Shown: piece by piece, positions 16,589 to 52,811 of the stretch
How the letters are laid out: every line of letters begins with the position of its first letter
Position numbering within the stretch: position 1 is the stretch's first letter
Translations under genes and position numbers: made by a program
Assembly (NCBI GenBank): GCA_017992005.1
Contig: JAGOPO010000001.1
Location: forward strand, 4,646-68,645
Source: Minisyncoccota bacterium
GTDB lineage: Bacteria; Patescibacteriota; Minisyncoccia; 2-02-FULL-40-12; GWA2-44-9
DNA length: 64,000 nucleotides
Reading direction: 5' to 3'
The notes under the pieces: model-generated
Databases searched by the model: none
Told to the model about the DNA's origin: nothing
What the model saw: only the letters and a program-made list of their open reading frames with translations

Positions 16589-16596
16589 AAAATTAT

Positions 16597-17398: not shown

Positions 17399-17434
17399 TA
17401 TCGTGAAGTGAAGCGAAAATGCTATATTTTGAGC

Positions 17435-19710: not shown

Positions 19711-19743
19711 ATCCAACTATCGATATGATAGCCTACTACTGTT

Positions 19744-21662: not shown

Positions 21663-21672
21663 GTCAATTGTT

Positions 21673-22401: not shown

Positions 22402-22485
22402 TTGTCCGCCTGAAGTATCTTGGATTGAGGGTCGAGAGGGGGATTGTTTAGATACTATGAACTAATAGATGATAGCATCGAATTT

Positions 22486-23610: not shown

Positions 23611-23632
23611 ATATTGTAGTCACACGAGAACA

Positions 23633-24493: not shown

Positions 24494-24497
24494 CTCA

Positions 24498-28160: not shown

Positions 28161-28163
28161 CCG

Positions 28164-30973: not shown

Positions 30974-30986
30974 GCTTGGGGCGATC

Positions 30987-33853: not shown

Positions 33854-33863
33854 TGCCGCTTAT

Positions 33864-35042: not shown

Positions 35043-35044
35043 CT

Positions 35045-37137: not shown

Positions 37138-37876
37138 GCTTGATGAATAGGGACTTGAATTTTATTTCTCCGTCGTGCCATTCACCGGGAGTGTTGATAT
37201 CGAGCTCATACTGCTCCGAGTGGGCGACGACATACAACTCTACTTTTTTGCCGTACAAATTGGATTTCTCGCTGTCGTAAAGATTTTGAGGGTTCAAAAC
37301 GTAGATAATATCATTGCGTGCATAGCATACTTGAGGGAAGTCTTGTCGTCGCGTAAGGATGTGTTTGAGTGGCACGCCTCCCCAGAGAGTGACATGGCCT
37401 TTTGGTCCGCGAACGAGTGTCCAGTACGGTGTATGGTTTGCTGGTGTAGGGTTTACGCCTACAACTGAAGTCGTATTCTTGCTTAAGAACAACATAATTG
37501 CATTATCGATATGAAACGATTGACGCGTGGGTGTCGTCGGCATCATGAGCGCAATGCCATCGGCGACATATCTCTCGGTATCTTTGAGGTGCTCATAGGC
37601 ATGCTTGAGCGTGGGTTCAATTCCAATGGAAGCGGTAGCTAATTCGTCTGGACGGATAATAACTTCGGCGCCATAACGCTTAGCGATGCGTGCAATTGCT
37701 GGACTATCAGTGGAAACAAAAACACGGTCAAGTTTTTTACTTTGGAGTGCAGCTAGAATAGACCATGCAATAAGCGGTTTGCCACAAAATAGCTTACTAT
37801 TCTTCCCAGGAATACCTTGTGAGCCACCGCGTGCGGGGATTATACCAATAAGACGAGGTCGTTTTTTCTTAACCAT
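37118..37876 (-). CDS. neuA: Acylneuraminate (nonulosonate) cytidylyltransferase, CMP-NeuAc synthetase family
   Basis: N-terminal LIGIIPARGGSQGIPGKN motif diagnostic of the CTP_transf_3 family. Confidence 0.9.
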   Translation of the reverse strand: MVKKKRPRLIGIIPARGGSQGIPGKNSKLFCGKPLIAWSILAALQSKKLDRVFVSTDSPAIARIAKRYGAEVIIRPDELATASIGIEPTLKHAYEHLKDTERYVADGIALMMPTTPTRQSFHIDNAIMLFLSKNTTSVVGVNPTPANHTPYWTLVRGPKGHVTLWGGVPLKHILTRRQDFPQVCYARNDIIYVLNPQNLYDSEKSNLYGKKVELYVVAHSEQYELDINTPGEWHDGEIKFKSLFIKPKASRK

Positions 37877-37910
37877 AAAAATATTATAGCATAAATATTA
37901 GGTAAGGAAA

Positions 37911-37934
37911 AGCCCCACACGGGATGTGTGGGGC
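37911..37934 (-). terminator. 9-bp GC-rich hairpin (gccccacac/gtgtggggc) followed on the minus strand by TTTT; also precedes an extended -10 (TGcTATAAT) placed for a leaderless neuA transcript
   Basis: Seen directly between the rSAM stop (37942) and the neuA start (37876); TATAAT (minus strand) ends 6 nt before the ATG. Confidence 0.55.
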
Positions 37935-37941
37935 GGGAATG

Positions 37942-39669
37942 CTAGAGATGAAGTACGTCGAGAGTGTGTCCGGAGTCAACAAGATCCCGAACCCTCAAGA
38001 ACATGTCGTTGGGGATATCGCTGAAGTTCAACGGTTCCCCCTCGTTTTCAAGAAGCTTCGTTGCGTCGTCCAATGAGATGAGATAGTCGTAGAACGCGTC
38101 ATCCATGACAGGATCAAACAGAACGCCGCTCGTATTCGGTCGTGCAGGTTGAAATGAAAGTCCAAATACACGGGTGAGTTCGGCGCGAACCGTGGAGTCG
38201 TTGATGAGCGTCGTGCCGGGGTACCACGTCATCGTGAACATTTTGGTATTCACTGATTCGGGGTTGATGCCGAATTGACTATAGTACTCCATTTGCCATT
38301 GCATGAAGAGAACGCTCTCTTTGATATCGGCAAGTGTTTCTGTTGGCGAACCGATAATCCATGTGCAGTTAGCGTGAATGTTAAATCGTCGAGCATTTTG
38401 AATGCCAACAATCATGGAGGTGGGGAATGAATGAGGCGAACCTCCAACATGAACCTCCATCATGCCATTACTAAGCGTGTGACCGCCCTTGCCGATTGCT
38501 TTGAGAACATCAGCGCTTGCGCTTTCTGCACCGAAGCCGATATAGGCGCAGCCGCCTTTAGCCATCAGCTCCACACGGAGTGGGCTCTCGGTCTTGCCAT
38601 TAATGAGTCCTGCGGCTTCGTCTAAGCGTGTATGGGTGCCCCAGGCAACTAAGTTCTTGATTTCTATGATTCGATCGACAGTGACAGCAAAGTTGTCATC
38701 AGGAAACGCATGGAACTTAATGCCGTAGCGGTCGATGTGGTCATGGAGTTCCCGCATAATGTGATCAGCGGAACGGACACCCCAATTGCGTTCGCCCTGC
38801 GTCTTGCGGAAGCAGTACTTGCATCCGAATGGGCACCCACGACTGGAGACTGATGTGGTCTTAGGGATCACATCCGCGTCACTCCATGGCGCAGCAGACG
38901 AATTGTTGGCACTGGCACTCCATGCGGGAGTGTGAAGATACCAATCAAGTACCGGATTGCCGTCAACGTCAGAGCGCAGAAGCTCCAAATCGGCATAGGG
39001 AAGTGCATCGAGATTGCGTGGCCGATTGCCAGCGTACAAGAATCGGTGACGTTCCCCAATGATACCCAGATGGTAGGGGTCGAGCATCCCAGAGCGAGCT
39101 GCTCTCTCAATGCCAAGATCGCTAACGATTTTAGCATCGTATGCAATCTTAATCATGATGTCGTCGCCTTCGGAGTGTGCGGCGCCATCAAGCTTGGGCA
39201 TGTACTGGAATAATCCTTCTTTGAGTTCGGTTGCCAGTCCACCACCGGACACCACGAAGACATCGGGAAGAATTGTGCGCACGATATCGAGCATGTTTTT
39301 CTGCCAACGGAGCGTGGTGATTTTACCCGAGAATGCGACACAGTGCGGCTCGCCGTGTTTCTCGATGTGGCGCTTTATGAGACCCGCCGCCTCGTCAAGA
39401 TTTAGGTGCCGTCCCCAGGGCAGGCGCGGATTTTGAGTAGTTAGGCGATAGGCATTTAGGTCGATGATCGTCGCCTCGACGCCGTAGTGTTGGCGCAGGC
39501 GGGTCGCCAGAAGGAGTGGCCCTTCTGGAGTCACGTTGGGTCGCGCCGTCTCTCGGAGCGGCATGTTGACGAACAGGACCCGAACGCCTGATAGGTGAGA
39601 CGGAGTGATAGATGCAATGACATCTGCCGGATGCAGTTCTAGCTGCGGAGCAACTGGAATTGTAGACAC
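37942..39669 (-). CDS. B12-binding domain-containing (class B) radical SAM enzyme
   Basis: CPFGCKYC (CxxxCxxC) radical SAM motif; N-terminal cobalamin-binding-like domain (VRVLFVNMP...ATRLRQHYGVEATIIDLN). Confidence 0.85.
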   Translation of the reverse strand: MSTIPVAPQLELHPADVIASITPSHLSGVRVLFVNMPLRETARPNVTPEGPLLLATRLRQHYGVEATIIDLNAYRLTTQNPRLPWGRHLNLDEAAGLIKRHIEKHGEPHCVAFSGKITTLRWQKNMLDIVRTILPDVFVVSGGGLATELKEGLFQYMPKLDGAAHSEGDDIMIKIAYDAKIVSDLGIERAARSGMLDPYHLGIIGERHRFLYAGNRPRNLDALPYADLELLRSDVDGNPVLDWYLHTPAWSASANNSSAAPWSDADVIPKTTSVSSRGCPFGCKYCFRKTQGERNWGVRSADHIMRELHDHIDRYGIKFHAFPDDNFAVTVDRIIEIKNLVAWGTHTRLDEAAGLINGKTESPLRVELMAKGGCAYIGFGAESASADVLKAIGKGGHTLSNGMMEVHVGGSPHSFPTSMIVGIQNARRFNIHANCTWIIGSPTETLADIKESVLFMQWQMEYYSQFGINPESVNTKMFTMTWYPGTTLINDSTVRAELTRVFGLSFQPARPNTSGVLFDPVMDDAFYDYLISLDDATKLLENEGEPLNFSDIPNDMFLRVRDLVDSGHTLDVLHL

Positions 39670-39786
39670 GAAGGAAACCTCCTTAAGAAATTGATTGGAA
39701 AAGTGCAGCGGTAGTATAGCAGAACATTGACGAAATGCAATGTTTGAGTTATTATATTATCATTCTTTTACAAAGGAGTAGCAATT

Positions 39787-40299
39787 ATGTGGATCACACA
39801 ATACGACGTTCTTCGACCGAAATTCGCTTCAATTGAGATCCTCGCATTGGACTTTGACGGCACGCTTACTGATGGTTTTGTGCACGTCCGACAGGATGGC
39901 ATGGAGACCGTTCGGTGTAGTCGTCGTGATAGCTTGGGCACCAATTTGCTTCAGGCAGCAGGTGTCAAAGTGGTTATCATCTCCAAGGAGACGAATCCAG
40001 TTGTACAGACGCGTGCCCAGAAGATGAAGGTTGACTGCTATCACGGAGTAGCTACTGGCGAGGGCAAGCTTGAAATTCTTCGTCGATACGCAGCGGAACG
40101 CCAAGTTCCACTTGAGAGAGTGTCCTACATGGGAGATGACATCAACGATCTGGAGTGCATTAAGGCCGTAGGCCTTGGTATCACTGTTGCCGATGGCCAT
40201 CCCATGTGCATTGGAGGCGCTGATTTCGTGACTACGCGCAAGGGTGGCGAGCACGCGGTGCGCGAAGTCTGCGATCTTATTTTGGAGGCAAAACGATGA
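39787..40299 (+). CDS. HAD-superfamily KdsC-type phosphatase (KDO-8-P / nonulosonate-9-P phosphatase family)
   Basis: ILALDFDGTLTDG...VVIISKE...SYMGDDINDLECIKAVGLGITVADGHP. Confidence 0.85.
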   Translation: MWITQYDVLRPKFASIEILALDFDGTLTDGFVHVRQDGMETVRCSRRDSLGTNLLQAAGVKVVIISKETNPVVQTRAQKMKVDCYHGVATGEGKLEILRRYAAERQVPLERVSYMGDDINDLECIKAVGLGITVADGHPMCIGGADFVTTRKGGEHAVREVCDLILEAKR

Positions 40300-41135
40300 C
40301 ATTTCCTATCGCAATTCTGCAGGGAAGATTGTCGCAGTCCCCCGATGAGCGATTTCAGTTTTTCCCTTATTATTGGGCAAGTGAGTTTCTTGCTGCTCAA
40401 GTAATGGGATTCGAGGGCATTGAGTGGCTGTGCGACGCCCCCGAGATGGAGGACAATAGCAATCCGGTACTCCTCAAGCAGGGCTCACAGCTGATTCGGA
40501 CTGCGGAGCTTCGCTCAGCTGTTCGTGTGGCTTCGGTATGCGCTGATTGGTTCATGAAGTACGATTTGCGCTCGTTGAGTGGAGCGCGGACATTGCCTTG
40601 GTTGACCTCGGCAATTCACCGCGCGGAATTAACCACCAATCGGGTTGTTCTGATCCCGCTATTGGAGGCGCATGCTCCAAAAAGTCTGGTGGAGCGGGAG
40701 AGGGTCCGCGAAAATCTCCAGATGATTCTGCCGATGTTGGCAAACTATCAAGTTTCGATCGCATTCGAAACGGAAATGAATGCCAGCGCATTGCAAGAAT
40801 TCGTGGATTCCTTCCAGAATGAGTACGTCGGCGTATACTACGATATCGGAAACTGTACGAGCTATGGCTTTGATTGCGCATCTGATATCAAGCGGCTCGC
40901 GCACCGAATCAAGGGGGTGCACGTCAAGGATCGTAAGAGGTATTCAACGAAATCGGTGTCACTTGGCACTGGTGACGCGAACATTCGAGGATGCCTCGAG
41001 TCCCTAGGTCACATAGGCTGGAGTGGAAGTCTCGTCCTGCAGGCGTTTCGAGGTGCTGCTACGTATCTGAAGGATGCCCAGCAGCAATTGACGTACATGA
41101 AGAAAATCCAAAAGGAGGTGTTTGGAAATGGATAA
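40296..41135 (+). CDS. Sugar phosphate isomerase/epimerase (xylose isomerase-like TIM barrel)
   Basis: FEGIEW..., VYYDIGNCTSYGFD...HVKD pattern typical of the AP_endonuc_2 / XylI-like TIM barrel. Confidence 0.7.
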   Translation: MTFPIAILQGRLSQSPDERFQFFPYYWASEFLAAQVMGFEGIEWLCDAPEMEDNSNPVLLKQGSQLIRTAELRSAVRVASVCADWFMKYDLRSLSGARTLPWLTSAIHRAELTTNRVVLIPLLEAHAPKSLVERERVRENLQMILPMLANYQVSIAFETEMNASALQEFVDSFQNEYVGVYYDIGNCTSYGFDCASDIKRLAHRIKGVHVKDRKRYSTKSVSLGTGDANIRGCLESLGHIGWSGSLVLQAFRGAATYLKDAQQQLTYMKKIQKEVFGNG

Positions 41136-41907
41136 GACATCAAATCCGTTCGATGTCGGTGATAAGGTCATTATCGTGACCGGTTCGTCTGGATTCCTTG
41201 GTCAGCAGTACGTGCGAGCGCTTCTAAAGGCTGGCGCGTATGTATACAGTTGGGATCGAGACGAATCACGTTCCGTTGACATCAAATCAGTTGATATCAC
41301 GAACGAAGGTTCCGTTGCAGAGGCTGTTGCGCGAATCATTGCCAATCGGGGACAGATCGATGGACTCGTCAACAACGCAGCCATGAATCCGGCGATCGGC
41401 TCAGGTGATTCGAAGTCACAGTTCGTGCCGTACGAGCAGTATGACATCGATCTCTTCCGGCGAGAGTTGGAAGTGAATCTCGTCGGTACGATGATCTGCA
41501 TCAAGCACGTTGCTCCATATATGATTGAGCAGAGGTCAGGCTCGATTGTGAACGTGGCATCTGAGGTAAGTGTCATCGCACATGATCATCGCGTCTACGA
41601 TGCAGGTGAGACGAAGTTTAAGAGCCCCGCATACACGGCGTCCAAGACAGCGGTGCTGGGCCTAACGCGTCAGTGGGCGGCACGTCTTGGTCGGCACGGG
41701 GTTCGCGTCAACGCGCTCTCTATTGGAGGCGTCCAGCGCGACGGCATGCCTGCTGACTTTGTTGAGCGTTTCGGTGCAACGACGATGTTGCAGCGGATGG
41801 CTCAGCCGGGCGAGTATTGTGCCACTCTGCAGTATTTGCTCTCGGATGCATCGTCGTTCATGACGGGCAACAACCTGATCGTGGATGGCGGTAAGCATGC
41901 CTGGTAA
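41122..41907 (+). CDS. SDR-family oxidoreductase
   Basis: IIVTGSSGFLGQQYVRAL glycine motif; YTASKTAVLGLTRQWA catalytic YxxxK. Confidence 0.85.
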   Translation: MEMDKTSNPFDVGDKVIIVTGSSGFLGQQYVRALLKAGAYVYSWDRDESRSVDIKSVDITNEGSVAEAVARIIANRGQIDGLVNNAAMNPAIGSGDSKSQFVPYEQYDIDLFRRELEVNLVGTMICIKHVAPYMIEQRSGSIVNVASEVSVIAHDHRVYDAGETKFKSPAYTASKTAVLGLTRQWAARLGRHGVRVNALSIGGVQRDGMPADFVERFGATTMLQRMAQPGEYCATLQYLLSDASSFMTGNNLIVDGGKHAW

Positions 41908-41914
41908 TCCGTTC

Positions 41915-41968
41915 GCCCCCGGTACGCCGGGGGCCTTTTCTTGACTTATATAGTGAAATCAGTACAAT
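41915..41968 (+). promoter_or_regulatory. GC-rich hairpin terminator (gcccccgg-tacg-ccgggggc + CTTTTC) immediately followed by promoter TTGACT-16nt-TACAAT for neuB (SD AAGGAGA before the ATG at 42000)
   Basis: Read directly; hexamers at 41941-41946 and 41963-41968. Confidence 0.55.
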
Positions 41969-41999
41969 TGCGCCAGCATTCTTTACAAGGAGATACGAA

Positions 42000-42968
42000 A
42001 TGAACCCGATTCGAATCGGATCACGTTGGGTGGGAAATGGCTTTCCCTGTCTTGTCATCGCTGAAATCGGCATCAACCATAACGGTTCTGTCGAAATCGC
42101 AAAACAGCTCATCGACGTTGCCGTCGATGCTGGTTGCGAAATGGTGAAGTTCCAGAAGCGCACCATCGATGTCGTCTACACGCAGGACGAGCTCGCGAAG
42201 CTTCGTGCGTTTGATAGAAGCATCATCAAGCATGCGGTCGAGCGCTCGGGCCGCTATGGATATTCCGTTCTAGGCTCAGTTGCGGAGGCTCGTTTGCATG
42301 CCAATCCCGAAGCGACCACGAACGGAGATCTGAAGCTCGCACTCGAGTTCAATCAGCCCGAGTATCGAGAGATTGACGCGTATTGTCGGGAGCGGGGCAT
42401 CATGTGGTGCGCTTCTCCTTGGGATGAGGCAAGCGTCGATTTTCTGGAGCAGTTCAATCCCGTGTGCTACAAGCTTGCGTCGGCTTCTATCACCGATCGC
42501 AAGCTGCTCGAGCATGTGCGAAGCAAGGGTCGTCCCGTAATTCTTTCGACAGGAATGAGTACCATGGAGCAGGTGCTTGCGTCGACGGGTATTGTCGGCG
42601 ATGTGCCACTGGTGATTCTGCACTGCAACAGCACATATCCGACGGCGGATGAAGACGAGAACCTTCGCGTCATCACGACGCTTCAGAATGAGTTTCCGTT
42701 TACGCCCATCGGATACTCGGGACACGGTCATGGCACCACCCCAAGTGTTGCCACTGTCGCACTGGGAGCGAGCGTCATCGAACGGCACATCACTCTTGAT
42801 CGTGCGATGCCTGGCTCGGACCAGTCCGCGTCGCTTGAGCCCTCTGGCATCAAGCATCTCGTACATAACGTTCGGCGCCTCGAGAAGGCGCTTGGCGACG
42901 GTATGAAGCGAGTGACGCCGGCCGAAGTTGCTATTGCCGCAAAGCTGCGTCGGAAGACCGACTTCTGA
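42000..42968 (+). CDS. neuB: N-acetylneuraminate (nonulosonic acid) synthase family protein (NeuB/PseI/LegI-like)
   Basis: GNGFPCLVIAEIGINHNGSVEIAKQLIDVAVDAGCEMVKFQKRT NeuB N-terminal signature; the C-terminal SAF domain appears short or absent. Confidence 0.9.
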   Translation: MNPIRIGSRWVGNGFPCLVIAEIGINHNGSVEIAKQLIDVAVDAGCEMVKFQKRTIDVVYTQDELAKLRAFDRSIIKHAVERSGRYGYSVLGSVAEARLHANPEATTNGDLKLALEFNQPEYREIDAYCRERGIMWCASPWDEASVDFLEQFNPVCYKLASASITDRKLLEHVRSKGRPVILSTGMSTMEQVLASTGIVGDVPLVILHCNSTYPTADEDENLRVITTLQNEFPFTPIGYSGHGHGTTPSVATVALGASVIERHITLDRAMPGSDQSASLEPSGIKHLVHNVRRLEKALGDGMKRVTPAEVAIAAKLRRKTDF

Positions 42969-42972
42969 CGCA

Positions 42973-43009
42973 CACCCCGTCCACGTGGACGGGGTGTTTT
43001 CTTTTTCGT
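42973..43009 (+). terminator. Rho-independent terminator (caccccgtcc-acgt-ggacggggtg + TTTTCTTTTT)
   Basis: Seen directly after the neuB stop. Confidence 0.8.
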
Positions 43010-43021
43010 ACACTACACATA

Positions 43022-43978
43022 ATGCATATCGAACACTGGGATGTTGATGCGGAGGTTAAAAAAGAGGCGCAAGAAAATTATCGAACAAAGTTCGCACTTT
43101 CACTTGCAGGAAAGGATGCACTTACTATAGTACGAGAGCTCACGTTTGATGGCGTTGCTCCTCTCATCACTATTGATGATCTTGATTGCCTCCTTCGGTG
43201 GATTGAGAAATACTTACTGCGAAAGAATTTTTCCGGTGTTGGCGTGGAGGTTGGAGCGGGGCCGCTAGTGTTTAGCTCGGTACTCGCGCGTTGTACTGCC
43301 GTTACCAAGATGTATGGTATTGAGATATGTCAGCCTATTGTTGAGCAATTGTTTCCTGGTGTTGCACGCGGTATCGCTCAGGAGAATACAAGCAAGCTCG
43401 TCGGCGTTGTCGGAAGTTTTGATGACATGCAGCTGCCTGATGCATCTGTCGATTTTGTATTTGATTTCTTCTCGCTACATCACTCACTCGATATTGAAGT
43501 AACATTTCGCGAGATAGCTCGAGTCCTAAAACCGGGCGGCTTTCTTCTGATGCTTGATAAAGCACGTCCGGATAGTTATTCGCAGGATGATTTGGACGCT
43601 TTACTAGACACACGTTATGGGCCTGAATATAATAAACAGTTCGGAATACCCGCAGAGCAGGTGATGACCCGCCGACTCAACGGAGAGCGTGAGTATCGAC
43701 GACGTGATTGGTGGGGCGCAGCATACAATGCAGGGATTCGGGTATTTGAATCGTGGCGGATTGAAAAGCCAGATTCTGGGGGAGTTATCGGTAAGATTAA
43801 GTTAGCACTTTCTATTTTGCCCCCAAATATTCAACTACTATTATCGCGATTTATTCCACAAAGAAAGCAAACGCATAAATTTATATTAGATGATTCATCT
43901 CGTGTCTTTACTCGACATATGGAGCACTTTCGTAAAGAAATGTCGGTTATGATAGCTTATAAAAATGAGCGTACTTAA
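43022..43978 (+). CDS. Class I SAM-dependent methyltransferase
   Basis: VGVEVGAGPLVF...; VDFVFDFFSLHH...IARVLKPGGFLLMLD. Confidence 0.75.
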   Translation: MHIEHWDVDAEVKKEAQENYRTKFALSLAGKDALTIVRELTFDGVAPLITIDDLDCLLRWIEKYLLRKNFSGVGVEVGAGPLVFSSVLARCTAVTKMYGIEICQPIVEQLFPGVARGIAQENTSKLVGVVGSFDDMQLPDASVDFVFDFFSLHHSLDIEVTFREIARVLKPGGFLLMLDKARPDSYSQDDLDALLDTRYGPEYNKQFGIPAEQVMTRRLNGEREYRRRDWWGAAYNAGIRVFESWRIEKPDSGGVIGKIKLALSILPPNIQLLLSRFIPQRKQTHKFILDDSSRVFTRHMEHFRKEMSVMIAYKNERT

Positions 43979-44663
43979 TAGAATTCGTCATGCGGTACGA
44001 GATTTGTTTTGGTACCCTGTATATATTGATTCAGACTCTACCTATAATAGGTATTGGTCTCAACGGGATATGTTTGCGACATTGAATGGCTTCCAGGCTG
44101 ATCGCGTTCGGATGATCGATGCGACTCTGCGGGATGGCGATTCTGTGCTCGATATCGGTTGCGGCGATGGTAGAATTCTTTCCGAGCTTCTGAAGAGAAG
44201 GGATATTACCGCATTAGGAATCGATAGTTCTGAGGATGCTCTCGGTGTGGCACAGCAACGAGGGGTGCCTGTGCAAAGAGTTGATATTCGAAAATTGGAC
44301 CCTGATGCTATTGGGACATATGACTGGGTCTTGTTGTTGGAAGTCTTGGAGCATATGAGCAATTGTGAGGAGCTCTTAGAGTGTGCACGTGTGCACGCCA
44401 GAAAGGCAGTGATATTTTCGGTGCCCAATACTGGCTACATAACGCACCGACTTAGGCTCTTGTTTGGACGTTTCCCGCTTCAATGGCGTGCGCATCCAGG
44501 TGAGCATGTCCGTTTTTGGACGTATCGAGATATGCAGTATTGGCTTGCATCTCTTGATTATGAGCAAGACATAAGGCCGTACCAGGGTATTCCGATATTG
44601 CGTCGCATCTGGCCGAGCCTATTTGCGGCCGGGCTTTTTATAGTTGTACGCTCTCGAAGCTAG
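43965..44663 (+). CDS. Class I SAM-dependent methyltransferase (MetW/Methyltransf_11-like)
   Basis: VLDIGCGDGRILSEL...DWVLLLEVLEHMSN. Confidence 0.75.
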   Translation: MSVLNRIRHAVRDLFWYPVYIDSDSTYNRYWSQRDMFATLNGFQADRVRMIDATLRDGDSVLDIGCGDGRILSELLKRRDITALGIDSSEDALGVAQQRGVPVQRVDIRKLDPDAIGTYDWVLLLEVLEHMSNCEELLECARVHARKAVIFSVPNTGYITHRLRLLFGRFPLQWRAHPGEHVRFWTYRDMQYWLASLDYEQDIRPYQGIPILRRIWPSLFAAGLFIVVRSRS

Positions 44664-45982
44664 CTTAGTAGTTTGCGACTCTCGTATTCCCATAATACAC
44701 AATTGAGCACCGTGCCAATTACCTGAGTAATAAGCGCAGCCCATACAAGACCCCAAATACCCCAGGCGCTACCGAGGAATAGATAAAGTATTATCTTAAG
44801 GGAGTGGCCAACTGTCGAGCTGATATATAGTGGCTTGAGCATTCGTTTGCCCCTAAAAATGCTAGCGATGTAAGAGTTTGGAAGTGTAAACACAGTTGTG
44901 AACATGAATACTCTGGAATATGCGATTGATTCTAAGTATTGAGGAAAAATAAATGAAAAAAGATGTGGTGCAACTATCCAGTAGCTTATGCTTACCAAGA
45001 AGCCCAAGCTTGCGCCCTGAAGGATTCGAGTATAGAAAACAGGTCGTATAGTGGATAGCTCCCTGCTAGACATCTTAGGCAACAAGAGAGCGGCGATGCT
45101 TTTTGCGTAGCTTTTAATTCGCTCAGGTGCGGCTTGGGCTAGTGAGTAGACCGCAAGCTGAACAGAACCAGTATTTTGGAATAGAAGCACCTTATCAATG
45201 TATTGATCTACTGTCGCTAATACATTCATGAATGATAGGTGGCCGCCGTAGGTTGCTAGCTGTGATTTCATTTGGCTAGACAAAGACGGGTGATGAGAGG
45301 CAGAGATAATTCTTCGATAGAAATATAGACCTGGAAGTAGCGTGCCTAGTGCATAAGCGATTACAATGATGAGAATATTTTTTGTGAGAATTGTTGCCGT
45401 AATGAGTAGGATGGAATAGGTGAGCGTACCCAATGCGTTATAGAGGGAAGCAGTCCGAAAATCTCTTTTCCCTGAAAGATATGCCCCGTATGTGTTAAGA
45501 GCCGAAGATATCGGAAACGATATACCCAAGATAAAAAGACCAAATGAAAGGACGGTGTTTCCCTGAACAAGATAATAGAGTGACCCAATAATCGACGCTA
45601 TAAAATACGCCGTATTCCATTTCAATTGCAAATGCACACTAAAAGGAAGCGCTCCCTGAACGCCGCTTGCCGTCATCTGCGTGACTGCCGTGTTCATGCC
45701 TGTTAATGTAAGGAATCCGAGCATTCCCGCTATTGAGAGGAGGTATTTGTAGGTGCCATAGTCCTGTGGCGATAAATAGTGTGCAAAGACAAGAATTTGA
45801 GCTAGTGACAAAATAGATCCAAGTGTTTGACCAAAGCCCGTCCAAAAACCACCTCGAACTAAATATAGATTGTCAGTTCCCGTGAGTGATTGAGTGCGGA
45901 CAACGAGTGCACGTAAGTAGCCCTTGACACGTGTAATCATGATAGTTATATTATAGCCTATCTTCGCATCTTTGGCAATCAC
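44660..45982 (-). CDS. MOP-superfamily oligosaccharide flippase (Wzx / Polysacc_synt family)
   Basis: About 12 TM helices; N-terminal GFWTGFGQTLGSILSLAQILVFAHYLSPQDYGTYKYL typical of Wzx-type proteins. Confidence 0.8.
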   Translation of the reverse strand: MIAKDAKIGYNITIMITRVKGYLRALVVRTQSLTGTDNLYLVRGGFWTGFGQTLGSILSLAQILVFAHYLSPQDYGTYKYLLSIAGMLGFLTLTGMNTAVTQMTASGVQGALPFSVHLQLKWNTAYFIASIIGSLYYLVQGNTVLSFGLFILGISFPISSALNTYGAYLSGKRDFRTASLYNALGTLTYSILLITATILTKNILIIVIAYALGTLLPGLYFYRRIISASHHPSLSSQMKSQLATYGGHLSFMNVLATVDQYIDKVLLFQNTGSVQLAVYSLAQAAPERIKSYAKSIAALLLPKMSSRELSTIRPVFYTRILQGASLGFLVSISYWIVAPHLFSFIFPQYLESIAYSRVFMFTTVFTLPNSYIASIFRGKRMLKPLYISSTVGHSLKIILYLFLGSAWGIWGLVWAALITQVIGTVLNCVLWEYESRKLLS

Positions 45983-45999: not shown

Positions 46000-47337
46000 A
46001 TGTATAGTACGTTGATGATGCTTCTAGAAAAAATTACGACTTCCATACGGCATCGTTTTGTTCGGGACAATATGATGCTTCAAATTGGATCATTGGGGGC
46101 GATGCTGGCGCAAGCCATAGGTGGTGTAATCCTTGCGCGGATTCTTGGCCCTCAGGAGTACGGGCGATTTGCAATTGTTATGTCAATGGCTGCTGTGGGA
46201 AGCGTATTTCTAGGTGCGGGCGCCGCTGATGCATTGGCCCCTATGTTAACTCGAGCCTATCATCGTGAAGATGATGGCGAAGTCCGCCGGGTATTCCTAT
46301 TTTTAGGAGGCTTTGTTATAAGCGCAGCTTTATTTTCAAGTGCACTTGGCCTTACGATGCCGCTGATTGCGAGGCATCTCTATGGAGATCGAATGATAGG
46401 ATGGCTGGGTTTTTTGGTCCTCATGGCTTCATCAATTTCAACGCTCATTTTAGTACCAACTCAACTTGGTCTACAGGTTGCAGGGAAGATTAAGCAGCTT
46501 GCACTCCTCACGCTTACTGATCAGTTTGTTCGACAGACACTCGTTCTCGTCCTTGCAGCGCTTGGCCTCGGAATCGCTGGAGCTGGCGTGGGCCACACTG
46601 TCGGCGCTATCGTGGTCTTATTTATTGCGTATTGGTTTTGGTCTCGACTGCGTAGGCAGTGGGGAGCGTTACCTACGGTGCCTCAAATGATGGCTCATAT
46701 ATCTCACACAAGAGATTCAAGCCTTATCGCACCAACGTTGTGGGTCCTTGCTGATCGTAATATTGCAATGCTCTATGGAGCGGCACCGATTTCAATCGCG
46801 GCGTTATCTCTTGTCGCAAGCGACGTATCGTATTTTAAGATCGCACTTGGCTGGGTAACGCTTGCGCTATCCGTGATAAGTCCAATTTCTAGCCTTTTAA
46901 ATACGGAGTTAGCTCGTATTCAAGTACAGCGACCGCAGCTACTCCGACGTCGCTTCTTGCAGATTACTGGTGGCGCAATTGCAGTCACGTGTGCTGTTAC
47001 ATTCGGGGCGGCGTTGATGGCAAGGCCAATGTTTTCACTTTTATATGGACCGCAATATGCACTGGCTGTGCCGCTTGTCTATAATCTTATTCCATTTGGA
47101 GCGCTTTTTGGTTTGGGTGTGGCTTTGGGGCCAATGTGGCGCATCATGAACCGCGTCAGGCATTCTATTGTAATTAATATCGTAGTTTTGGTCGTCGGCG
47201 TTCCGTTGGCGCTTTTTAGTATGCAGCACTGGGGTGTTATTGGTGCGATTGGCATGGTGACTGGATGGTATGCTGCGTCACATGCGATATCCTTCTGGTA
47301 TCTTTTGAAACTATTGGGTAAGATGCAGACACCATGA
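46000..47337 (+). CDS. MOP-superfamily polysaccharide biosynthesis/export protein (second Wzx-like flippase)
   Basis: GSLGAMLAQAIGGVILARILGPQEYGRFAIVMSMAAVG; multi-TM; start could be the internal ATG near 46072. Confidence 0.75.
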   Translation: MYSTLMMLLEKITTSIRHRFVRDNMMLQIGSLGAMLAQAIGGVILARILGPQEYGRFAIVMSMAAVGSVFLGAGAADALAPMLTRAYHREDDGEVRRVFLFLGGFVISAALFSSALGLTMPLIARHLYGDRMIGWLGFLVLMASSISTLILVPTQLGLQVAGKIKQLALLTLTDQFVRQTLVLVLAALGLGIAGAGVGHTVGAIVVLFIAYWFWSRLRRQWGALPTVPQMMAHISHTRDSSLIAPTLWVLADRNIAMLYGAAPISIAALSLVASDVSYFKIALGWVTLALSVISPISSLLNTELARIQVQRPQLLRRRFLQITGGAIAVTCAVTFGAALMARPMFSLLYGPQYALAVPLVYNLIPFGALFGLGVALGPMWRIMNRVRHSIVINIVVLVVGVPLALFSMQHWGVIGAIGMVTGWYAASHAISFWYLLKLLGKMQTP

Positions 47338-49613
47338 ACGAATCTTTTCTCGCAAAAGCTATCCGCTGGCTTGTCTATGCTAGTGCGTTTATTCCACTCG
47401 TAATATTTAGCCAGTACATGTCACCATTTCACTTTGGAAAGGTGGTAGTGTTCCGGAGCATCGTGCAGGTCATGGTGGCTTTGTATCTCCTTTTGGTGTG
47501 GCGAGATCGATCCTATGCGCCCAAGAGTCATCCGATCACTTGGGCATTCCTATCGTTTGCAATTGCTTTTACGATCACTTCCGGAACGTCGGTGGCGTTT
47601 TTACAGAGTTTTTGGGGGACGCTTGAGCGTATGGGCGGGCTATTTTCATTTTGGCACTACTTCTTATTTTATATCATCACAATTTCTGTGATGAGAACGC
47701 GAAGTGATTGGAGGGTGCTTCTCAATATCATGGTTGGTGTTGGTTTTGCTTCCGCAATCTATGGATTTCTCCAAAAAACAGACTGGGCATTTATTCTTGG
47801 CTCTGGCGGACGTCAACGCCCCTTTGGGACCATAGGCAATCCGGCGCTCTTTGCGGGGTACCAAATCTTGATCGCATTCCTTTCGTTAACGCTGGCATCC
47901 ATGAAGCGCACAAGTTTCAAAATGAAGCGGTGGTATTTTACAGCAGGAGGTGTCATGTTGCTGGCGGTAATATCAACAGCGGTTCGTGGCTCGCTTATTG
48001 GAATTGTTGCTGGGGGACTTACGTGGGCACTTCTCTGGGGGTCTTTGAATAGGAGTCGCCTTGCTAGGAATGGTCTACTTGCTGGCTTAACGGCTATTGT
48101 AGTGTTTGTATTTCTCGCAATGATGTTGCGGCAAACGTCCTTTGTTCAGAATTCGCCGTATTTAAAGCGCGTTACTGATTTTTCAAGTTCAACATTCACA
48201 GTGCAGACTCGATTTTGGGCATGGACCGCAGGGTATGAGGGTTGGACTGAAAATTTCAAGACGATCATGCTCGGATGGGGGCCAGAAAATTTCAACGTAC
48301 CATTCAGTAAGCACTTCAATCCGAAATTCTTTACAGGACCAGGTGCAGAAACATTCTTTGATCGTGCGCATAACATGTTTGTTGAAGTTACGGTCACGAT
48401 GGGTCTCCTGGGATTGATTTCGTATCTTTCAATCTTTGCAGCATCCTTTCGACAGTTTGCTCGTTTTATGAAAGAGAATTCAGATGCTCGAGTTATAGGG
48501 ATTGGCTTTGCGTCGATGTCGGTTGCGTATATCATCCATAATTGTTTTATCTTCGATACCTCTGCAAACTTCCTGTCGTTCTTCACTCTTCTCGCCTTTG
48601 TAGTGCATGTCGCAATCTCTGGAATTGATGCAGCGCCGATTCGAGGTTCGAGCGTGCGAGCATGGTCAGGTTTGCAGACGCTTTACATTGTTGTCGTGCC
48701 AATCATCGTCTTTGTTTCAATTTATGCTACCAATGTGCGACTATCGATGGCAAACTACGCGAGTACGAGAGCAATTGTAGCGGGATATCGAGGTGATTGG
48801 GTTTCTGCGGTCAATAAATATAGAGAAGCGATCGATATCGATGCCCCTGGGCGTTACGAATATCGACACAGATACGCACAATATTTGCTGGAGCTTTCGG
48901 GGGCAACCGATGTGAGTAAGGTTCCAAATTTTAAAGAGGTCACATTGCGCGCCATTGAAGACGTAAAGCAGAATACGATAGAAAATCCGGACGATTACCT
49001 TCCGTACCTCTATCTTTCTCGTCTGTATATAACGCTTGGAAAAGGAGATTCCAAGAGTCCGTATAATGACGAGGCGCTTCGTATGTCGGGTAAGGCGCTC
49101 GAGATTAGTCCTACCTTTGTCCGCACCTATTATGAGGTCGCTCAGGCGTACTTGAATAAGGGATTACCAGAGAGCGCCCTGGAGTGGTTTAAGAAGGCTT
49201 CGGTGCTAAACCCTGATGTTGCAATAACATACTGGTATATCGGCACGGTGCAATATCAAATTGCGGCATCGCGTAATAGCTTTGAAGGAGTTAAGGAGGC
49301 CCTACAATCGATGAATACTGGTTTGGCGAAGGGATACACGATGACGGAGCAAGATGGTCTTCGATTGATTCAGATCTATTCCCAGCTGGGCGATATGAAG
49401 AATGTTGCCGCTATGAGCGAGCGACTCGTAGTCTCGTTCCCAAAGAAAGCAGATTACTGGTCCCTCCTGATTAATGCGTACGCCGACTTAAACGAAGCTC
49501 AAAAAGTAATTGAAACAATACGACGAGCACTCGCAGTTCCTGAGATTGCTGCAGATAAAAACTTTACCGAAAAAGCAGATCTTGTATTGGGGCGTTTAGG
49601 GGCGGCACGTTAA
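47334..49613 (+). CDS. O-antigen ligase (Wzy_C) domain membrane protein fused to C-terminal TPR repeats; candidate O-oligosaccharyltransferase/polymerase
   Basis: Polytopic N-terminal domain; Wzy_C-like loop RAHNMFVEVTVTMGLLGLISYL; C-terminal TPR-like repeats (YYEVAQAYLNKGLPESALEWFKKASVLNPD...). Confidence 0.8.
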   Translation: MNESFLAKAIRWLVYASAFIPLVIFSQYMSPFHFGKVVVFRSIVQVMVALYLLLVWRDRSYAPKSHPITWAFLSFAIAFTITSGTSVAFLQSFWGTLERMGGLFSFWHYFLFYIITISVMRTRSDWRVLLNIMVGVGFASAIYGFLQKTDWAFILGSGGRQRPFGTIGNPALFAGYQILIAFLSLTLASMKRTSFKMKRWYFTAGGVMLLAVISTAVRGSLIGIVAGGLTWALLWGSLNRSRLARNGLLAGLTAIVVFVFLAMMLRQTSFVQNSPYLKRVTDFSSSTFTVQTRFWAWTAGYEGWTENFKTIMLGWGPENFNVPFSKHFNPKFFTGPGAETFFDRAHNMFVEVTVTMGLLGLISYLSIFAASFRQFARFMKENSDARVIGIGFASMSVAYIIHNCFIFDTSANFLSFFTLLAFVVHVAISGIDAAPIRGSSVRAWSGLQTLYIVVVPIIVFVSIYATNVRLSMANYASTRAIVAGYRGDWVSAVNKYREAIDIDAPGRYEYRHRYAQYLLELSGATDVSKVPNFKEVTLRAIEDVKQNTIENPDDYLPYLYLSRLYITLGKGDSKSPYNDEALRMSGKALEISPTFVRTYYEVAQAYLNKGLPESALEWFKKASVLNPDVAITYWYIGTVQYQIAASRNSFEGVKEALQSMNTGLAKGYTMTEQDGLRLIQIYSQLGDMKNVAAMSERLVVSFPKKADYWSLLINAYADLNEAQKVIETIRRALAVPEIAADKNFTEKADLVLGRLGAAR

Positions 49614-50977
49614 CGACCCGATCGACGCAGCGAGATACTTATCGTTTTTAAGACGATTTCAAGATCGAGCAAGATTGATCGATGCTTGATGTAGTAAAGA
49701 TCATACTGGAGCTTTTGAAGCGCATCTTCTACTGATGCTCCATACGGGTAGTTAATTTGAGCCCAACCAGATAAACCCGGTTTAATGAGATACCGCTCGT
49801 TATAGAATGGAATTTGAAGCGCCAACTGTGCGTCGAACTCTGGCCGTTCAGCGCGGGGTCCCACAAGCGACATATCTCCACGAAGGATATTCCAAAGCTG
49901 GGGCAGCTCATCAATCCGAGTTTTGCGGAGTAGTGAGCCAACTCTCGTAATTCGCGAGTCATTTTGTGTTGCCCAGACAGCACCAGTCGTGGCCTCGGCA
50001 TCAATCTTCATTGTTCTGAATTTAATTATTGAAAATGGCGTACCCGCGCGACCCGTTCTCGCTTGTCGAAAGAACACTGGGCCGCGCGAATCAACGAGAA
50101 TGATGGCTGCGATGAATGGAAGTGCGATGAGTGTTGGGATGCCAAGTAGTGTAGCCGAAGCAATATCCACGAAGCGCTTCATAGGATCGAGTGATTTTTT
50201 GGAGCCCTCCTCGAGGTTGTTCAAGAACCAGGTCTGATTAATCGATCCTAACGGAATTCGACCCGTGAGTTGCTCGGTGAGTGAGGTGAGAGATATAAAA
50301 TTAATTTGACGAGATATCGCCGAGTAGAAAAGGTCCACGACCTCCTTGAGCTGATATGCATCGGGAGTGATAACAACAGTATCGATGCTTTTATGAATAA
50401 TATGAGCGTCGACCTCGTTGAGATTATGTATTACACCCCAGCTCGTTGCTGAAGTGGTTGTTTCAATTGATTCATTATTAAGATGTACAAATGAACTAAT
50501 ACGGTAGCCAAGTTGTGGGTTATTCGTAATGAATGTAGCGAGTTCGATAGCTTCTTTTGTTATTCCAACTATAAGAATATTTTTCTTGGTACTACCCGCT
50601 AGGATGCGATTATAGAGTAGTCGCATGCCCCACATTCCGATTGCTAGAAGGATCAAAAAGATGAAAAGATTTCGCTTCGGTGTAATTCCAAAAAAGGGTA
50701 TGAGATAGAAGAATATAATAGAAATGACCGCGGCGAATAACATCGCTTGTGCAAGGCGTTCAAAAAATTCTCTATCATTGCGCATGAATCTGACATTGTA
50801 GAGATTTGTTATATAGAGTGCGAAAAGCCACACGAGTAGTAAAAGAGAGAATGGGACAACGTGACGACTGAACTGAATCGTAAAATCAGACCTTCCGTAG
50901 CGCAGCAAGAGTGTGACTGCAAGGGCGCCGTAGAAAGAGACGAAGTCTGAGGAGAGAAGGGTGATAATACGTGGCAT
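49610..50977 (-). CDS. Polyprenyl-phosphate sugar phosphotransferase (WbaP/WsaP-like initiating phosphoglycosyltransferase, Bac_transf family)
   Basis: KRFVDIASATLLGIPTLIALPFIAAIILVDSRGPVFFRQARTGRAGTPFSIIKFRTM...DELPQLWNILRGDMSLVGPRAERPEF. Confidence 0.9.
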   Translation of the reverse strand: MPRIITLLSSDFVSFYGALAVTLLLRYGRSDFTIQFSRHVVPFSLLLLVWLFALYITNLYNVRFMRNDREFFERLAQAMLFAAVISIIFFYLIPFFGITPKRNLFIFLILLAIGMWGMRLLYNRILAGSTKKNILIVGITKEAIELATFITNNPQLGYRISSFVHLNNESIETTTSATSWGVIHNLNEVDAHIIHKSIDTVVITPDAYQLKEVVDLFYSAISRQINFISLTSLTEQLTGRIPLGSINQTWFLNNLEEGSKKSLDPMKRFVDIASATLLGIPTLIALPFIAAIILVDSRGPVFFRQARTGRAGTPFSIIKFRTMKIDAEATTGAVWATQNDSRITRVGSLLRKTRIDELPQLWNILRGDMSLVGPRAERPEFDAQLALQIPFYNERYLIKPGLSGWAQINYPYGASVEDALQKLQYDLYYIKHRSILLDLEIVLKTISISLRRSGR

Positions 50978-51056: not shown

Positions 51057-52811
51057 ATGAAATGGGCGAGACTCCTAGCAAGTTGGTTTATTCTATCGTC
51101 TGTATTTGGCTTGCGAATTGAGCGTGCTGTGGCGGATAGTATTGAGCAGGCGCAGAAGTATAATGTCAATTCATTCTATGATTACGCTGGGGCTGCTTCA
51201 CTTTATTCGACGCTCCGTGCTATTGGCACCCATGGGTACTTCTATGTTGATGATCGCTACTGGAGCTATATGACTCCAGCACAGCAAACCTCATTTATCA
51301 TTTCTCTTCAACAGCTATCTCAACAGTTTGACGATGCGATCTATCCAGCCTCCGTGAAGTTATGGGGCTCGGAGGCCAATCCTGGTGTCGACGGTGATTC
51401 TCATGTGGTAATTCTCCTGCAGCGCTTGATTAATGGGAGTGGTGGGTATTTCGAAAATATTCATAACTACTCCAAGGAGCAGTCGCCCCTCGGTAATGCT
51501 CGCGAGATGCTTTTTATAAACGCAGATAGCGTTCTGGCTGGTAACGCAAAGACGTTAATCGCACATGAGCTGCAACATCTTATCTCGTTTAATCAAAGAG
51601 AGCTGGCTGGTCGAATGGATGAGGATGTATGGCTGAACGAGGCACGAAGTGAATACAATACAACGGCTGTTGGTTACGGTGGTCCTACCGAGTTTAGTTC
51701 GCTCCAGAGGCGTGTGGTTGGTTTTCTCCGCGCCCCATCTGATTCATTGACGGTATGGCCAAATACTTCTACGGATTACGCAATTACGTCGATTTTTGCA
51801 CACTATCTCGTTGGTCATTATGGAGAGGCGATTCTGTCTGAAACGGGGTCCTCAAAATATAGTGGAACAGCCGCGTTGCATGACTGGCTTAAGACGAATA
51901 AAAATAGTGGCTTCTCGGACGTATTTGTAAGCTGGATGGTCGCGAACGCCCTCAATGATCGTGGTCTCAATTCACTGTATGGCTATACGCAAGCTGAATT
52001 AAGCTCGCTTCGTGTACTACCAGAGACCACGGAGAGCCTTTCATTGTCGCGTAAGCAGATTTCGCGCTCAAGTCGTTTACAAGAATGGCAGCCACGTTGG
52101 CTCACGATACCCATTGAATCGGGCGTGACTTCTAATCAGGATCTCACGTTGCGAATTTCGGGGTCGTCGGAGAGCTCGCTATATGGTGCTATTATGATGC
52201 GTTATAGAAACGGATTCACGCGTGTTTTGCAGTCTCAATTTACGGATGGCCGTTCAGATGCGCGGGTTCCTATGTGGGACGCTGGTTCTGAGATTCAATC
52301 CGTTACATTCGCCGTCGCGCAAGGATCCTTGTATCCCCTAGAGAGAAGGAAACCGATTGAGGAGACGGTCATGATTACTGCCTCCATCGGTGATCTTGAC
52401 GAGTCATACGTGTCACCTTTGACGGACCCGATAGCACCGACTTCAGAGCGATTTGCTTATGTCCAGCCAAGAGATGGAGATCTCATTCGTCGAAAAGGTC
52501 AGAGCGATATCTATGTGGTCTGGGGTCCGTATCGAAGATTGCTAACGCCTACCATTCTTGCGCTATACGGATTCCAGAATAGGGAAATTCGCGATGTGCC
52601 TGATGATGTGTTCTTCCATTACGCTGCAAGTGTGTATATCCGCGCTCTTGGCTCCAAGAAGGTCTATGCGGTTTGGGCGGATGGGTCAAAGCACTGGTTT
52701 GATATTTCTGCTCAGCAATGGGAGGCGTCAGGACGAGATTGGAGTGCTATTTTTACGGTTAATGATGCGGAGGTCTCTGCGTATCCACTCGGCACATCGA
52801 TTACTCGTTAA
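51057..52811 (+). CDS. Secreted hypothetical protein with HExxH zinc-peptidase motif
   Basis: Signal peptide MKWARLLASWFILSSVFGL; AHELQHLIS...E; unassigned family. Confidence 0.5.
   Translation: MKWARLLASWFILSSVFGLRIERAVADSIEQAQKYNVNSFYDYAGAASLYSTLRAIGTHGYFYVDDRYWSYMTPAQQTSFIISLQQLSQQFDDAIYPASVKLWGSEANPGVDGDSHVVILLQRLINGSGGYFENIHNYSKEQSPLGNAREMLFINADSVLAGNAKTLIAHELQHLISFNQRELAGRMDEDVWLNEARSEYNTTAVGYGGPTEFSSLQRRVVGFLRAPSDSLTVWPNTSTDYAITSIFAHYLVGHYGEAILSETGSSKYSGTAALHDWLKTNKNSGFSDVFVSWMVANALNDRGLNSLYGYTQAELSSLRVLPETTESLSLSRKQISRSSRLQEWQPRWLTIPIESGVTSNQDLTLRISGSSESSLYGAIMMRYRNGFTRVLQSQFTDGRSDARVPMWDAGSEIQSVTFAVAQGSLYPLERRKPIEETVMITASIGDLDESYVSPLTDPIAPTSERFAYVQPRDGDLIRRKGQSDIYVVWGPYRRLLTPTILALYGFQNREIRDVPDDVFFHYAASVYIRALGSKKVYAVWADGSKHWFDISAQQWEASGRDWSAIFTVNDAEVSAYPLGTSITR

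Follow-up and report, generated by a model that had tools for sequence, protein, structure and literature searches.

In the 64,000-nucleotide stretch analysed here (the window; contig JAGOPO010000001.1 of the Minisyncoccota bacterium assembly GCA_017992005.1, positions 4,646 to 68,645 of the forward strand), we found that a MOP (Wzx-type) flippase, a protein in which a Wzy_C domain is fused to tetratricopeptide repeats (TPR) and a convergently encoded phosphoglycosyltransferase (PGT) together make up the conserved border of a hypervariable glycan island next to secA. The Wzy_C-TPR protein is a candidate WaaL-fold ligase for glycans linked to undecaprenyl pyrophosphate (Und-PP) or O-oligosaccharyltransferase (O-OTase). 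By analogy with known systems and from circumstantial evidence, we take a protein O-OTase as the leading reading of its function, with the case for it about evenly balanced. Equally balanced, in our judgment, is the broader proposal that the enzyme and the PGT may stand at the conserved core of a Wzx-dependent pathway for surface glycans, in a monoderm, lipopolysaccharide (LPS)-free bacterium of the Paceibacteria, within the candidate phyla radiation (CPR).

The Wzy_C-TPR gene occupies positions 47334..49613 (+) and codes for 759 residues, and the PGT gene, at 49610..50977 (-), codes for 455; both open reading frames (ORFs) lie where an earlier note on this DNA had placed them. The stop codons of the two convergent genes share the palindrome TTAA (49610-49613). 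At its other end, the Wzy_C-TPR gene follows the gene for flippase B (46000..47337, +; matches to Polysacc_synt_3 and Polysacc_synt), and its start codon overlaps the flippase stop codon in the sequence ATGA at 47334-47337. Because of this overlap, which the earlier note left unmentioned, the two genes are read as one operon, and flippase B is translationally coupled to the Wzy_C-TPR gene.

The fusion of Wzy_C to TPR, as described in the earlier note, was borne out by profile searches. Pfam Wzy_C (PF04932) matched residues 207-365 with 42.7 bits (gathering score 31.7), several TPR models passed their cutoffs at about residues 579-642, and Wzy_C was matched in 10 of 10 family members tested, with a best E value of 2.8e-17. 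In the AlphaFold2 (AF2) model of the protein (pLDDT 87.4, pTM 0.83), the membrane domain (residues 1-472; 47334..48749, +) consists of 12 WaaL-like transmembrane (TM) helices and an extra helix, TM13 (residues 446-472; nt 48669-48749, +). It is followed by a TPR domain, predicted to be extracytoplasmic (residues 473-759; 48750..49610, +), in which about 14 helices between residues 489 and 754 form about seven TPR hairpins. The best structural match of the protein was WaaL, with 359 of 403 WaaL residues aligning with the membrane domain over the 12-TM core. Thus, the membrane domain has the WaaL-type 12-TM fold.

Residue conservation was assessed in an alignment of 35 family members with 47-80% identity. 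The outer catalytic loop (residues 266-347; 48129..48374, +) has 33 invariant residues out of 82, including R293 (48210-48212, +), WGPENF (315-320; 48276-48293, +) and DRAHN (343-347; 48360-48374, +), which contains H346 (48369-48371). Also invariant are R218 at the outer end of TM7/8 (47985-47987, +), H402, N403 and D408, and the stretches SPFHFGK (30-36), ERMGG (98-102) and a Gly/Arg-rich loop at 156-169. The functional triad of WaaL, R215/R288/H338, is equivalent to R224/R298/H349 of PglL (PMC3643930). In the Wzy_C-TPR protein, R218, R293 and H346 are separated by 75 and 53 residues, as compared to 73 and 50 in WaaL and 74 and 51 in PglL, and H346 aligned to H338 of Escherichia coli WaaL in the sole stretch matched by hhalign (RAHNMFVE against HLHNEIIE). 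The protein carries the Arg/Arg/His triad of the Wzy_C superfamily, in positions that the predicted topology places outside, and, with its Pfam match and its fold, we assign it to that superfamily.

A topology with 13 TM helices and the N-terminus inside was predicted from the AF2 helices, hydropathy and Lys/Arg counts, and the superposition on the 12-TM WaaL. The Lys/Arg-rich loops 189-197, 238-246, 373-386 and 430-445 were assigned to the cytoplasm by the positive-inside rule, and every invariant polar cluster falls in loops assigned to the outside. Since TM13 leads the chain back out, the TPR domain would also be located outside, beside the catalytic loop. Conservation was highest, at 0.80-0.82, in the outer loops. 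The membrane-proximal half of the TPR domain (473-646), with values of 0.68-0.69 and 35 invariant residues, is conserved to the same degree as the catalytic domain, and the distal repeats (647-759; 0.47) are variable. TM13 (0.46) and the cytoplasmic loop that precedes it (430-445; 0.27) are the least conserved segments of the membrane domain, and a low conservation of TM13 is as expected of a simple membrane-crossing linker.

Despite its fold, the family has no detectable family-level sequence similarity to WaaL of Cupriavidus metallidurans (7tpg/7tpj) or E. coli. A profile of the membrane-domain family found no chain in the PDB even at E<=10, and a profile of the full-length alignment found TPR proteins only; in a control search, E. 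coli WaaL found the solved WaaL 7tpg at 2.3e-11. Moreover, hhalign against E. coli WaaL returned a probability of 0.4%, with only the catalytic-His motif aligned. As sequence was unable to place the family, structure was used. The family appears to fall outside WaaL proper, the PglL family as defined by PglL_A, and the pilin-adjacent TfpO group.

The hosts of the family also bear on its relation to WaaL. A search for homologues gave 741 significant matches; the 120 best were mostly full-length, with about 46-80% identity, and all their named sources were metagenome-assembled genomes (MAGs) of Patescibacteria/Paceibacterota. A scan of one genome per GTDB species gave 185 relatives, and the 80 that were retained as loci all came, by the titles shown, from Patescibacteria MAGs or from unclassified 'bacterium' MAGs, the named labels being Yanofskybacteria, Paceibacterota, Parcubacteria, Portnoybacteria, Minisyncoccia and a generic 'Saccharibacteria'. 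Parcubacteria are reported to be devoid of lipid A/LPS genes (PMC5220378) and the CPR was grouped with monoderm lineages (bioRxiv 2021.05.31.446380). A classical WaaL, joining O-antigen to lipid A-core, would account for the best structural match and for the name under which the identical protein is deposited at NCBI ('MAG: O-antigen ligase family protein [Candidatus Pacebacteria bacterium]'). We regard this possibility as effectively refuted: the family profile and hhalign find no WaaL, the relatives just described belong to a monoderm group without lipid A/LPS genes, no lpx or waa genes were found within the 64-kb window, the gene stands outside any waa core locus, and WaaL has neither a 13th TM helix nor a TPR domain. 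The earlier note had named clustering with bona fide WaaL ligases, or service to an LPS core locus, as outcomes at odds with its proposal, and neither was seen. Because the host lacks lipid A-core, the acceptor is expected to be a different one.

The gene neighborhood was compared across 65 loci with enough flanking DNA. TPR is fused to Wzy_C in all 65. A PGT gene is found within 6 kb in 41 loci and is both convergent and adjacent in 32, indicating that the pairing seen in the earlier note is not accidental; in six loci it lies upstream. A protein of about 580 residues, encoded next to the PGT gene in the window, is present in 34 of the 65. Relatives with 68, 50, 49 and 48% identity have the variable glycan genes first, then the flippase, Wzy_C-TPR, the convergent PGT, the ~580-residue protein, HPF and SecA. 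In two loci a gene for a pyruvoyl-dependent arginine decarboxylase (PvlArgDC) lies between the Wzy_C-TPR and PGT genes (L003:12249-12791 and L004:12281-12823). Strict adjacency is thus dispensable.

The flippase and the Wzy_C-TPR gene, though joined by the ATGA overlap, differ markedly in conservation. In a comparison of the window with 19 genomes, the Wzy_C domain had a median identity of 52%, the PGT of 51% and SecA of 68%, but flippase B of only 39%. In the closest relative (L006), the corresponding values were 80, 75, 90 and 38%, and in L006, L007 and L009 together, flippase B is just 38-43% identical, whereas the Wzy_C domain is 67-80% and SecA 78-90% identical. Likewise, ORFs upstream of the flippase are common to a median of 11% of the loci, as compared to 47% for ORFs downstream. 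Since the flippase and the upstream ORFs diverge and the enzyme and the PGT stay, the border of the variable island must lie between the genes for the flippase and the Wzy_C-TPR protein, and the 4-nt overlap itself appears to be the recombination boundary. The Wzy_C-TPR enzyme and the PGT thus belong to the stable part of the locus, and the enzyme tracks the genome phylogeny. The conservation of the PGT also suggests that the reducing-end sugar of the glycan is conserved.

These observations bear on the possibility that the enzyme is a Wzy-type polymerase, which would string flipped, Und-PP-linked repeat units together at the outer face and use the TPR as a scaffold for chain-length control or export, while a separate enzyme would attach the polymer. 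PF04932 also covers polymerases, the solved 7tpg/7tpj chain is deposited as a 'polymerase/ligase', and a position directly behind a Wzx-type flippase in one operon is the classical wzx-wzy arrangement. A Wzy polymerase, however, changes with its repeat unit, whereas WaaL and PglL, which recognize the lipid carrier together with a conserved acceptor, accept a wide range of glycans. That the enzyme remains constant while the flippase and the glycosyltransferases are swapped, with 67-80% identity in the very genomes in which the flippase retains 38-43% and with an upstream set of glycosyltransferases that differs between genomes, argues for a ligase or OTase and against a polymerase. In the domain annotation of the 64-kb window no other recognizable Wzy polymerase was found, which would favor a polymerase, but neither was a Wzz/PCP co-polymerase, which would not; LCP proteins were also not found. 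The at least 12 glycosyltransferases of the island could build a long, non-repeating glycan without any polymerization, and two polytopic proteins encoded in its variable part (see below) are better placed as glycan-specific polymerases or GT-C enzymes. We therefore consider it quite improbable that the Wzy_C-TPR protein is a polymerase.

The partner PGT matched Bac_transf (209.9 bits) and CoA_binding_3 in Pfam, and passed the NCBIfam model TIGR03025, 'EPS polyprenyl glycosylphosphotransferase' (365.4 bits, cutoff 295.55). It scored below the WbaP-specific TIGR03022 (195.5, cutoff 403) and below the WcaJ-specific equivalog (297.8, cutoff 410.75). The description of the protein as WbaP-like thus stands at the level of the superfamily but not at that of the WbaP subfamily. 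Hydropathy identified three N-terminal hydrophobic segments, one of which, with 53 residues, has room for two helices, and one more segment that precedes the catalytic domain; the translation contains the motifs KFRTM, RIDELPQ and PGLSGWAQ. The protein is thus a member of the large polytopic phosphoglycosyltransferases (PHPT; the WbaP/WcaJ/CpsE/WsaP group) and the presumed initiating enzyme.

As the earlier note had reported, the PGT gene is preceded by the sigma-70-type promoter sequence TTGACT-17-TATAAT (51016->50988, -); its -10 box ends 10 nt before the ATG. As a single match, this site is statistically weak, with 10 promoter-like sites across the region against 9.1 in shuffled sequences and hence no excess. 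Nevertheless, most of the closer relatives have AAATTGAC(T/C)-N17/18-TATAAT in front of the PGT gene, with its end some 7-10 nt from the start codon, and a relaxed pattern, TTGnnn-N16-18-TAnnnT, ends 0-14 nt before the start codon in 17 of 29 related loci. Because the motif recurs in relatives, the near-leaderless promoter is probably real.

Together, these features lead us to the following scheme. The PGT, translated from a leaderless mRNA, would start the glycan at the cytoplasmic face of the membrane by loading undecaprenyl phosphate with the first sugar-phosphate. The strain-specific glycosyltransferases and modifying enzymes of the island would extend the glycan, with a nonulosonic-acid-type sugar and methylations, and a MOP flippase would carry the lipid-linked glycan to the outer face. 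There, the Wzy_C enzyme, through its outward R218/R293/H346 site, would move the glycan in one piece off Und-PP and onto a conserved acceptor, which the membrane-proximal part of the extracytoplasmic TPR domain would hold. Ser, Thr or Tyr residues of secreted proteins of the surface or S-layer type would be the most likely acceptor, and the enzyme would then be an O-OTase of the WsfB/PglL type. The domains, the fold, the invariant residues, the shared gene order and the constancy of the enzyme beside a changing donor pathway are observations; the topology, the transfer of the glycan en bloc by a ligase and, above all, a protein as acceptor are inferences.

Several lines of evidence are consistent with an O-OTase. 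The described O-OTase classes carry Wzy_C, in agreement with the earlier note: the domain is present in PglL, PglS, TfpO and TfpM (PMC9829042) and also in WsaB/WsfB (PMC2943079). The C-terminal periplasmic domain of PglL and PglS was proposed to read sequons (PMC9829042), and the TPRs of OGT and SPY were among the best structural matches of the C-terminal domain of the Wzy_C-TPR protein. A protein acceptor would also fit the strong conservation of the membrane-proximal TPR half, the Ser/Thr-rich proteins encoded in the window, and the PMT-type enzymes and Ser/Thr-rich secreted proteins around the paralogue (see below). The step from a TPR domain to a protein acceptor, taken in the earlier note, is an analogy with WsfB, OGT and TMTC. 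The proposal of an O-OTase pair is thus plausible and, in our view, leading, while the evidence for its protein acceptor is circumstantial.

A number of observations weigh against this proposal. LpoP and PilF/PilW are equally good structural matches for the C-terminal TPR array, and TPR domains also scaffold polysaccharide export or bind cell-wall enzymes. Against NCBIfam, the Wzy_C-TPR protein gave TPR-driven matches only, and no O-OTase, ligase or polymerase family. PglL_A (PF15864) and Wzy_C_2 were not detected in any of 10 family members, even at E<=10. PilO/TfpO is also devoid of the PglL_A motif (PMC3643930), so its lack is compatible with an O-OTase. No credible prepilin N-terminal motif was found in the 85 sequences formed by the window and 84 loci, a single regular-expression match being a false positive. 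The Ser/Thr-rich neighbors described below are circumstantial, and the clearest of them flank a paralogous clade and not the orthologue group of the window. The two polytopic proteins of the island are themselves candidate GT-C glycosyltransferases or glycan-specific polymerases. In addition, O-OTases and ligases can be told apart by experiment only, and not by sequence or fold (PMC3643930), and our comparison of the family with WsfB, WsaB, PglL, PilO and TacL was made by published description and not by sequence. Finally, TacL is a Wzy_C enzyme of a monoderm with a glycolipid acceptor (PMC5727136).

TacL illustrates a further possibility, that the enzyme is a ligase for a non-protein acceptor, either a membrane glycolipid, as in the TacL-like formation of a lipoteichoic acid or lipoglycan, or a component of the cell wall; the TPR domain would then dock partners in wall synthesis or export. 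Like TacL of Streptococcus pneumoniae, which works at the outer face and hands a polymer from Und-PP to an acceptor other than LPS (PMC5727136), the enzyme described here is a Wzy_C protein of a monoderm. TacL, however, has 397 residues with no extra domain (PMC5727136), as opposed to 759 residues with TM13 and TPR, and no teichoic-acid-specific gene set was recognized within the window. The TPR fusion in 65 of 65 family members, with its conserved membrane-proximal surface, also argues against a non-protein acceptor, as do the Ser/Thr-rich secreted proteins and PMT-type enzymes around the paralogue. Moreover, the only described enzymes combining Wzy_C and TPR are protein O-OTases (PMC2943079). 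We consider a lipid or wall acceptor unlikely, yet deserving of some weight.

A pilin-specific, TfpO-like O-OTase was also considered and was rejected, as no credible pilin was found in the window and the 84 loci.

Among known systems, the protein O-OTase reading finds its closest counterparts in the S-layer O-glycosylation of monoderm hosts, with WsfB/WsfP in Paenibacillus alvei and WsaB, WsaA and WsaP in Geobacillus stearothermophilus. WsfB combines Wzy_C with a C-terminal TPR, as found here, whereas in the WsaA/WsaB system the TPR protein is encoded adjacently; WsfP and WsaP are WbaP-like polytopic PHPT initiators with a C-terminal catalytic domain, and the glycan is built on a polyprenol carrier by glycosyltransferases encoded in the locus (PMC2943079). 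The window thus shares with these systems the Wzy_C-TPR architecture, the WbaP-like PHPT and the monoderm host. It differs from them in the route of export, through two MOP (Wzx-type) flippases rather than a Wzm/Wzt ABC transporter, in the acceptor, whose gene is known for the S-layer systems and for which the candidates here, at 5891-9178 and 4310-5257, are only suggestive, and in the confinement of the family, among the matches listed, to Patescibacteria. A review terms WsfB a 'putative/predicted' O-OTase (PMC2943079).

With PglL and PglS of Neisseria and Acinetobacter, the protein shares Wzy_C, the Arg/Arg/His triad with its near-equal spacing (75/53, and 74/51 in PglL) and a large C-terminal extracytoplasmic domain (PMC3643930, PMC9829042). 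The trio of PGT, flippase and OTase is also common to both, and a relaxed glycan specificity is suggested by the conservation of the enzyme beside variable glycan genes. Unlike PglL and PglS, however, which belong to diderm hosts, the family shows no PglL_A or Wzy_C_2 signal and has no adjacent pilin gene, and its C-terminal domain is a canonical seven-hairpin TPR array that follows an extra TM helix. A TPR array fused to a glycosyltransferase is also found in OGT, SPINDLY and the eukaryotic TMTC proteins, and the TPR of OGT is generally taken to select protein substrates. The analogy goes no further, as the catalytic folds are unrelated and the donors are nucleotide sugars or Dol-P-Man, as opposed to an Und-PP-linked glycan.

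The family comprises two paralogous types, and in a neighbor-joining tree a derived clade (L022-L083) stands apart from the PGT context. Both types are present in at least two MAGs, one containing L017 and L046 and the other L059 and L060. In the derived clade the PGT/flippase context is lost, and the gene follows one for a GSDH-like beta-propeller protein. It is flanked by genes for a PMT/PMT_2 enzyme, a polytopic TPR protein, GT4 enzymes and a GT2 enzyme. Also encoded next to it, in one case directly downstream, are secreted proteins whose tracts are poly-Thr or rich in Ser/Thr/Pro/Tyr.

A polytopic TPR protein is also encoded in the window, at 9273-10973 (+). It has 566 residues, with 9-10 TM helices in a membrane part that has no Pfam match and a C-terminal TPR that is 32% identical to residues 539-633 of the Wzy_C-TPR protein (E 2e-7). 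In the paralogous clade, its homologues precede the Wzy_C-TPR gene by one or two genes. The acidic FYEDDIQVIVENP motif in its predicted first outer loop seems reminiscent of GT-C/TMTC-type enzymes. Since its TPR is related to that of the Wzy_C-TPR protein, two different outward-facing membrane enzymes with related TPR modules would be encoded in the window.

Two proteins encoded in the window may be regarded as candidate acceptors. The first, a speculative choice, is a secreted or anchored surface protein of 1095 residues (5891..9178, +), of which 23.6% are Ser or Thr and which has no Pfam domain. It opens with an undescribed domain of about 120-130 residues, also without a Pfam match, with the pattern GDVIRATGDVDLYIVN..GYKRLF..P.IF..YG... 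This domain is found near Wzy_C-TPR genes in 28 of 84 loci, with 45-61% identity, and is fused in one case to a poly-Gly/poly-Thr linker and SH3_3 (L050:3274-4566). It may serve as an acceptor, or may be a surface or wall-anchoring domain specific to the CPR. The second candidate (4310-5257, +) is a membrane-anchored protein with a long Pro/Thr/Ala/Val-rich linker, in which 25 of the 40 residues at 103-142 are Ser, Thr or Pro, and a lamin-tail domain behind it. General O-glycosylation systems typically have their glycosylation sites in low-complexity linkers such as this.

The protein of about 580 residues encoded on the other side of the PGT gene, and divergently from it (51057..52811, +), has a signal peptide and the motif HELQH...NE, and is a secreted, M30-like zinc metalloprotease. 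Its homologues are all hypothetical proteins of Patescibacteria, and weak matches to Peptidase_MA_2 were found in 9 of 30. Its C-terminal 120 residues or so (window 52443-52808) are a divergent form of the surface-protein domain that opens the 1095-residue protein (E 3e-11). We saw no evidence in support of the protease as a component of the glycosylation machinery, and its synteny is probably best read as a conserved backbone of PGT, protease, HPF and SecA.

A single long glycan locus takes up the window from about 10975 to 51000. Encoded in the variable glycan-assembly island (10975..44663), which would supply the donor, are at least 12 glycosyltransferases of the GT4/GT2 families, numerous methyltransferases, one GNAT, a B12-binding radical SAM enzyme and the two polytopic proteins without annotation. 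It also codes for a nonulosonic-acid-type pathway, with a NeuB-like synthase, a PseF-like cytidylyltransferase, a LegC/PseC-like aminotransferase and a HAD protein resembling KdsC/KDN-9-P phosphatase, all of them below the equivalog cutoffs. This set, together with the radical SAM enzyme and a glycosyltransferase with a weak match to the BFO_1060 family, lies at 28164-29291, 35719-37137, 37118-37876 (-), 37942-39669 (-), 39787-40299 and 42000-42968. The combination suggests a glycan with an unusual, possibly C-methylated nonulosonic acid.

The two polytopic proteins (565 residues, 29276-30973, +; 616 residues, 30939-32789, +) are distant paralogues with no Pfam match. Each has a soluble C-terminal domain of about 200 residues, and their first loops contain the acidic motifs VDDDLYYY and NDSEGEY. 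Homologues were found in only two or three related loci, and the two proteins are therefore part of the variable island. Next to flippase B, and transcribed divergently from it, lies the gene for a second MOP flippase, flippase A (44660..45982, -; Polysacc_synt, 66.5 bits), which is also found in several related loci.

Neither the architecture nor the pairing is without precedent. The novelty implied by the earlier note does not hold in that respect, as a Wzy_C-TPR O-OTase, WsfB, with a WbaP-like partner, WsfP, was already published for the S-layer of P. alvei, and the protein itself is already deposited under a generic name. New here is a sequence-distinct lineage, restricted to Patescibacteria, that marks the fixed border of a hypervariable glycan island in ultra-small bacteria without LPS; no O-antigen-ligase-like protein or O-OTase is described for the Patescibacteria/CPR in the searchable literature. 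Rather tentatively, with the balance somewhat against us, we extend the idea to the Paceibacteria as a whole: these bacteria might possess a lineage-wide, general protein O-glycosylation system, in which a sequence-distinct WaaL-fold O-OTase with TM13 and an outward TPR domain decorates surface or S-layer proteins with strain-specific, nonulosonic-acid glycans made by the island beside secA.

To our knowledge, the composition of the cell envelope of the CPR/Patescibacteria is essentially unknown, and these organisms are hard to culture. A conserved WaaL-fold ligase at a fixed chromosomal position, beside an island that changes, points to a major strain-variable surface glycoconjugate in LPS-free bacteria. 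If the idea of a lineage-wide system is correct, the island would do for these LPS-free episymbionts what an O-antigen locus does elsewhere, and would be likely to determine how they attach to their hosts and evade phages. With a protein as acceptor, the module would be the first machinery for O-glycosylation to be defined in the radiation, with H346, R293, the TPR domain and the candidate acceptors as concrete targets, and a glycan-promiscuous O-OTase of a new sequence family could also serve bioconjugate engineering. If, instead, the acceptor is a lipid or a component of the wall, the module would still define how these cells display their variable glycan.

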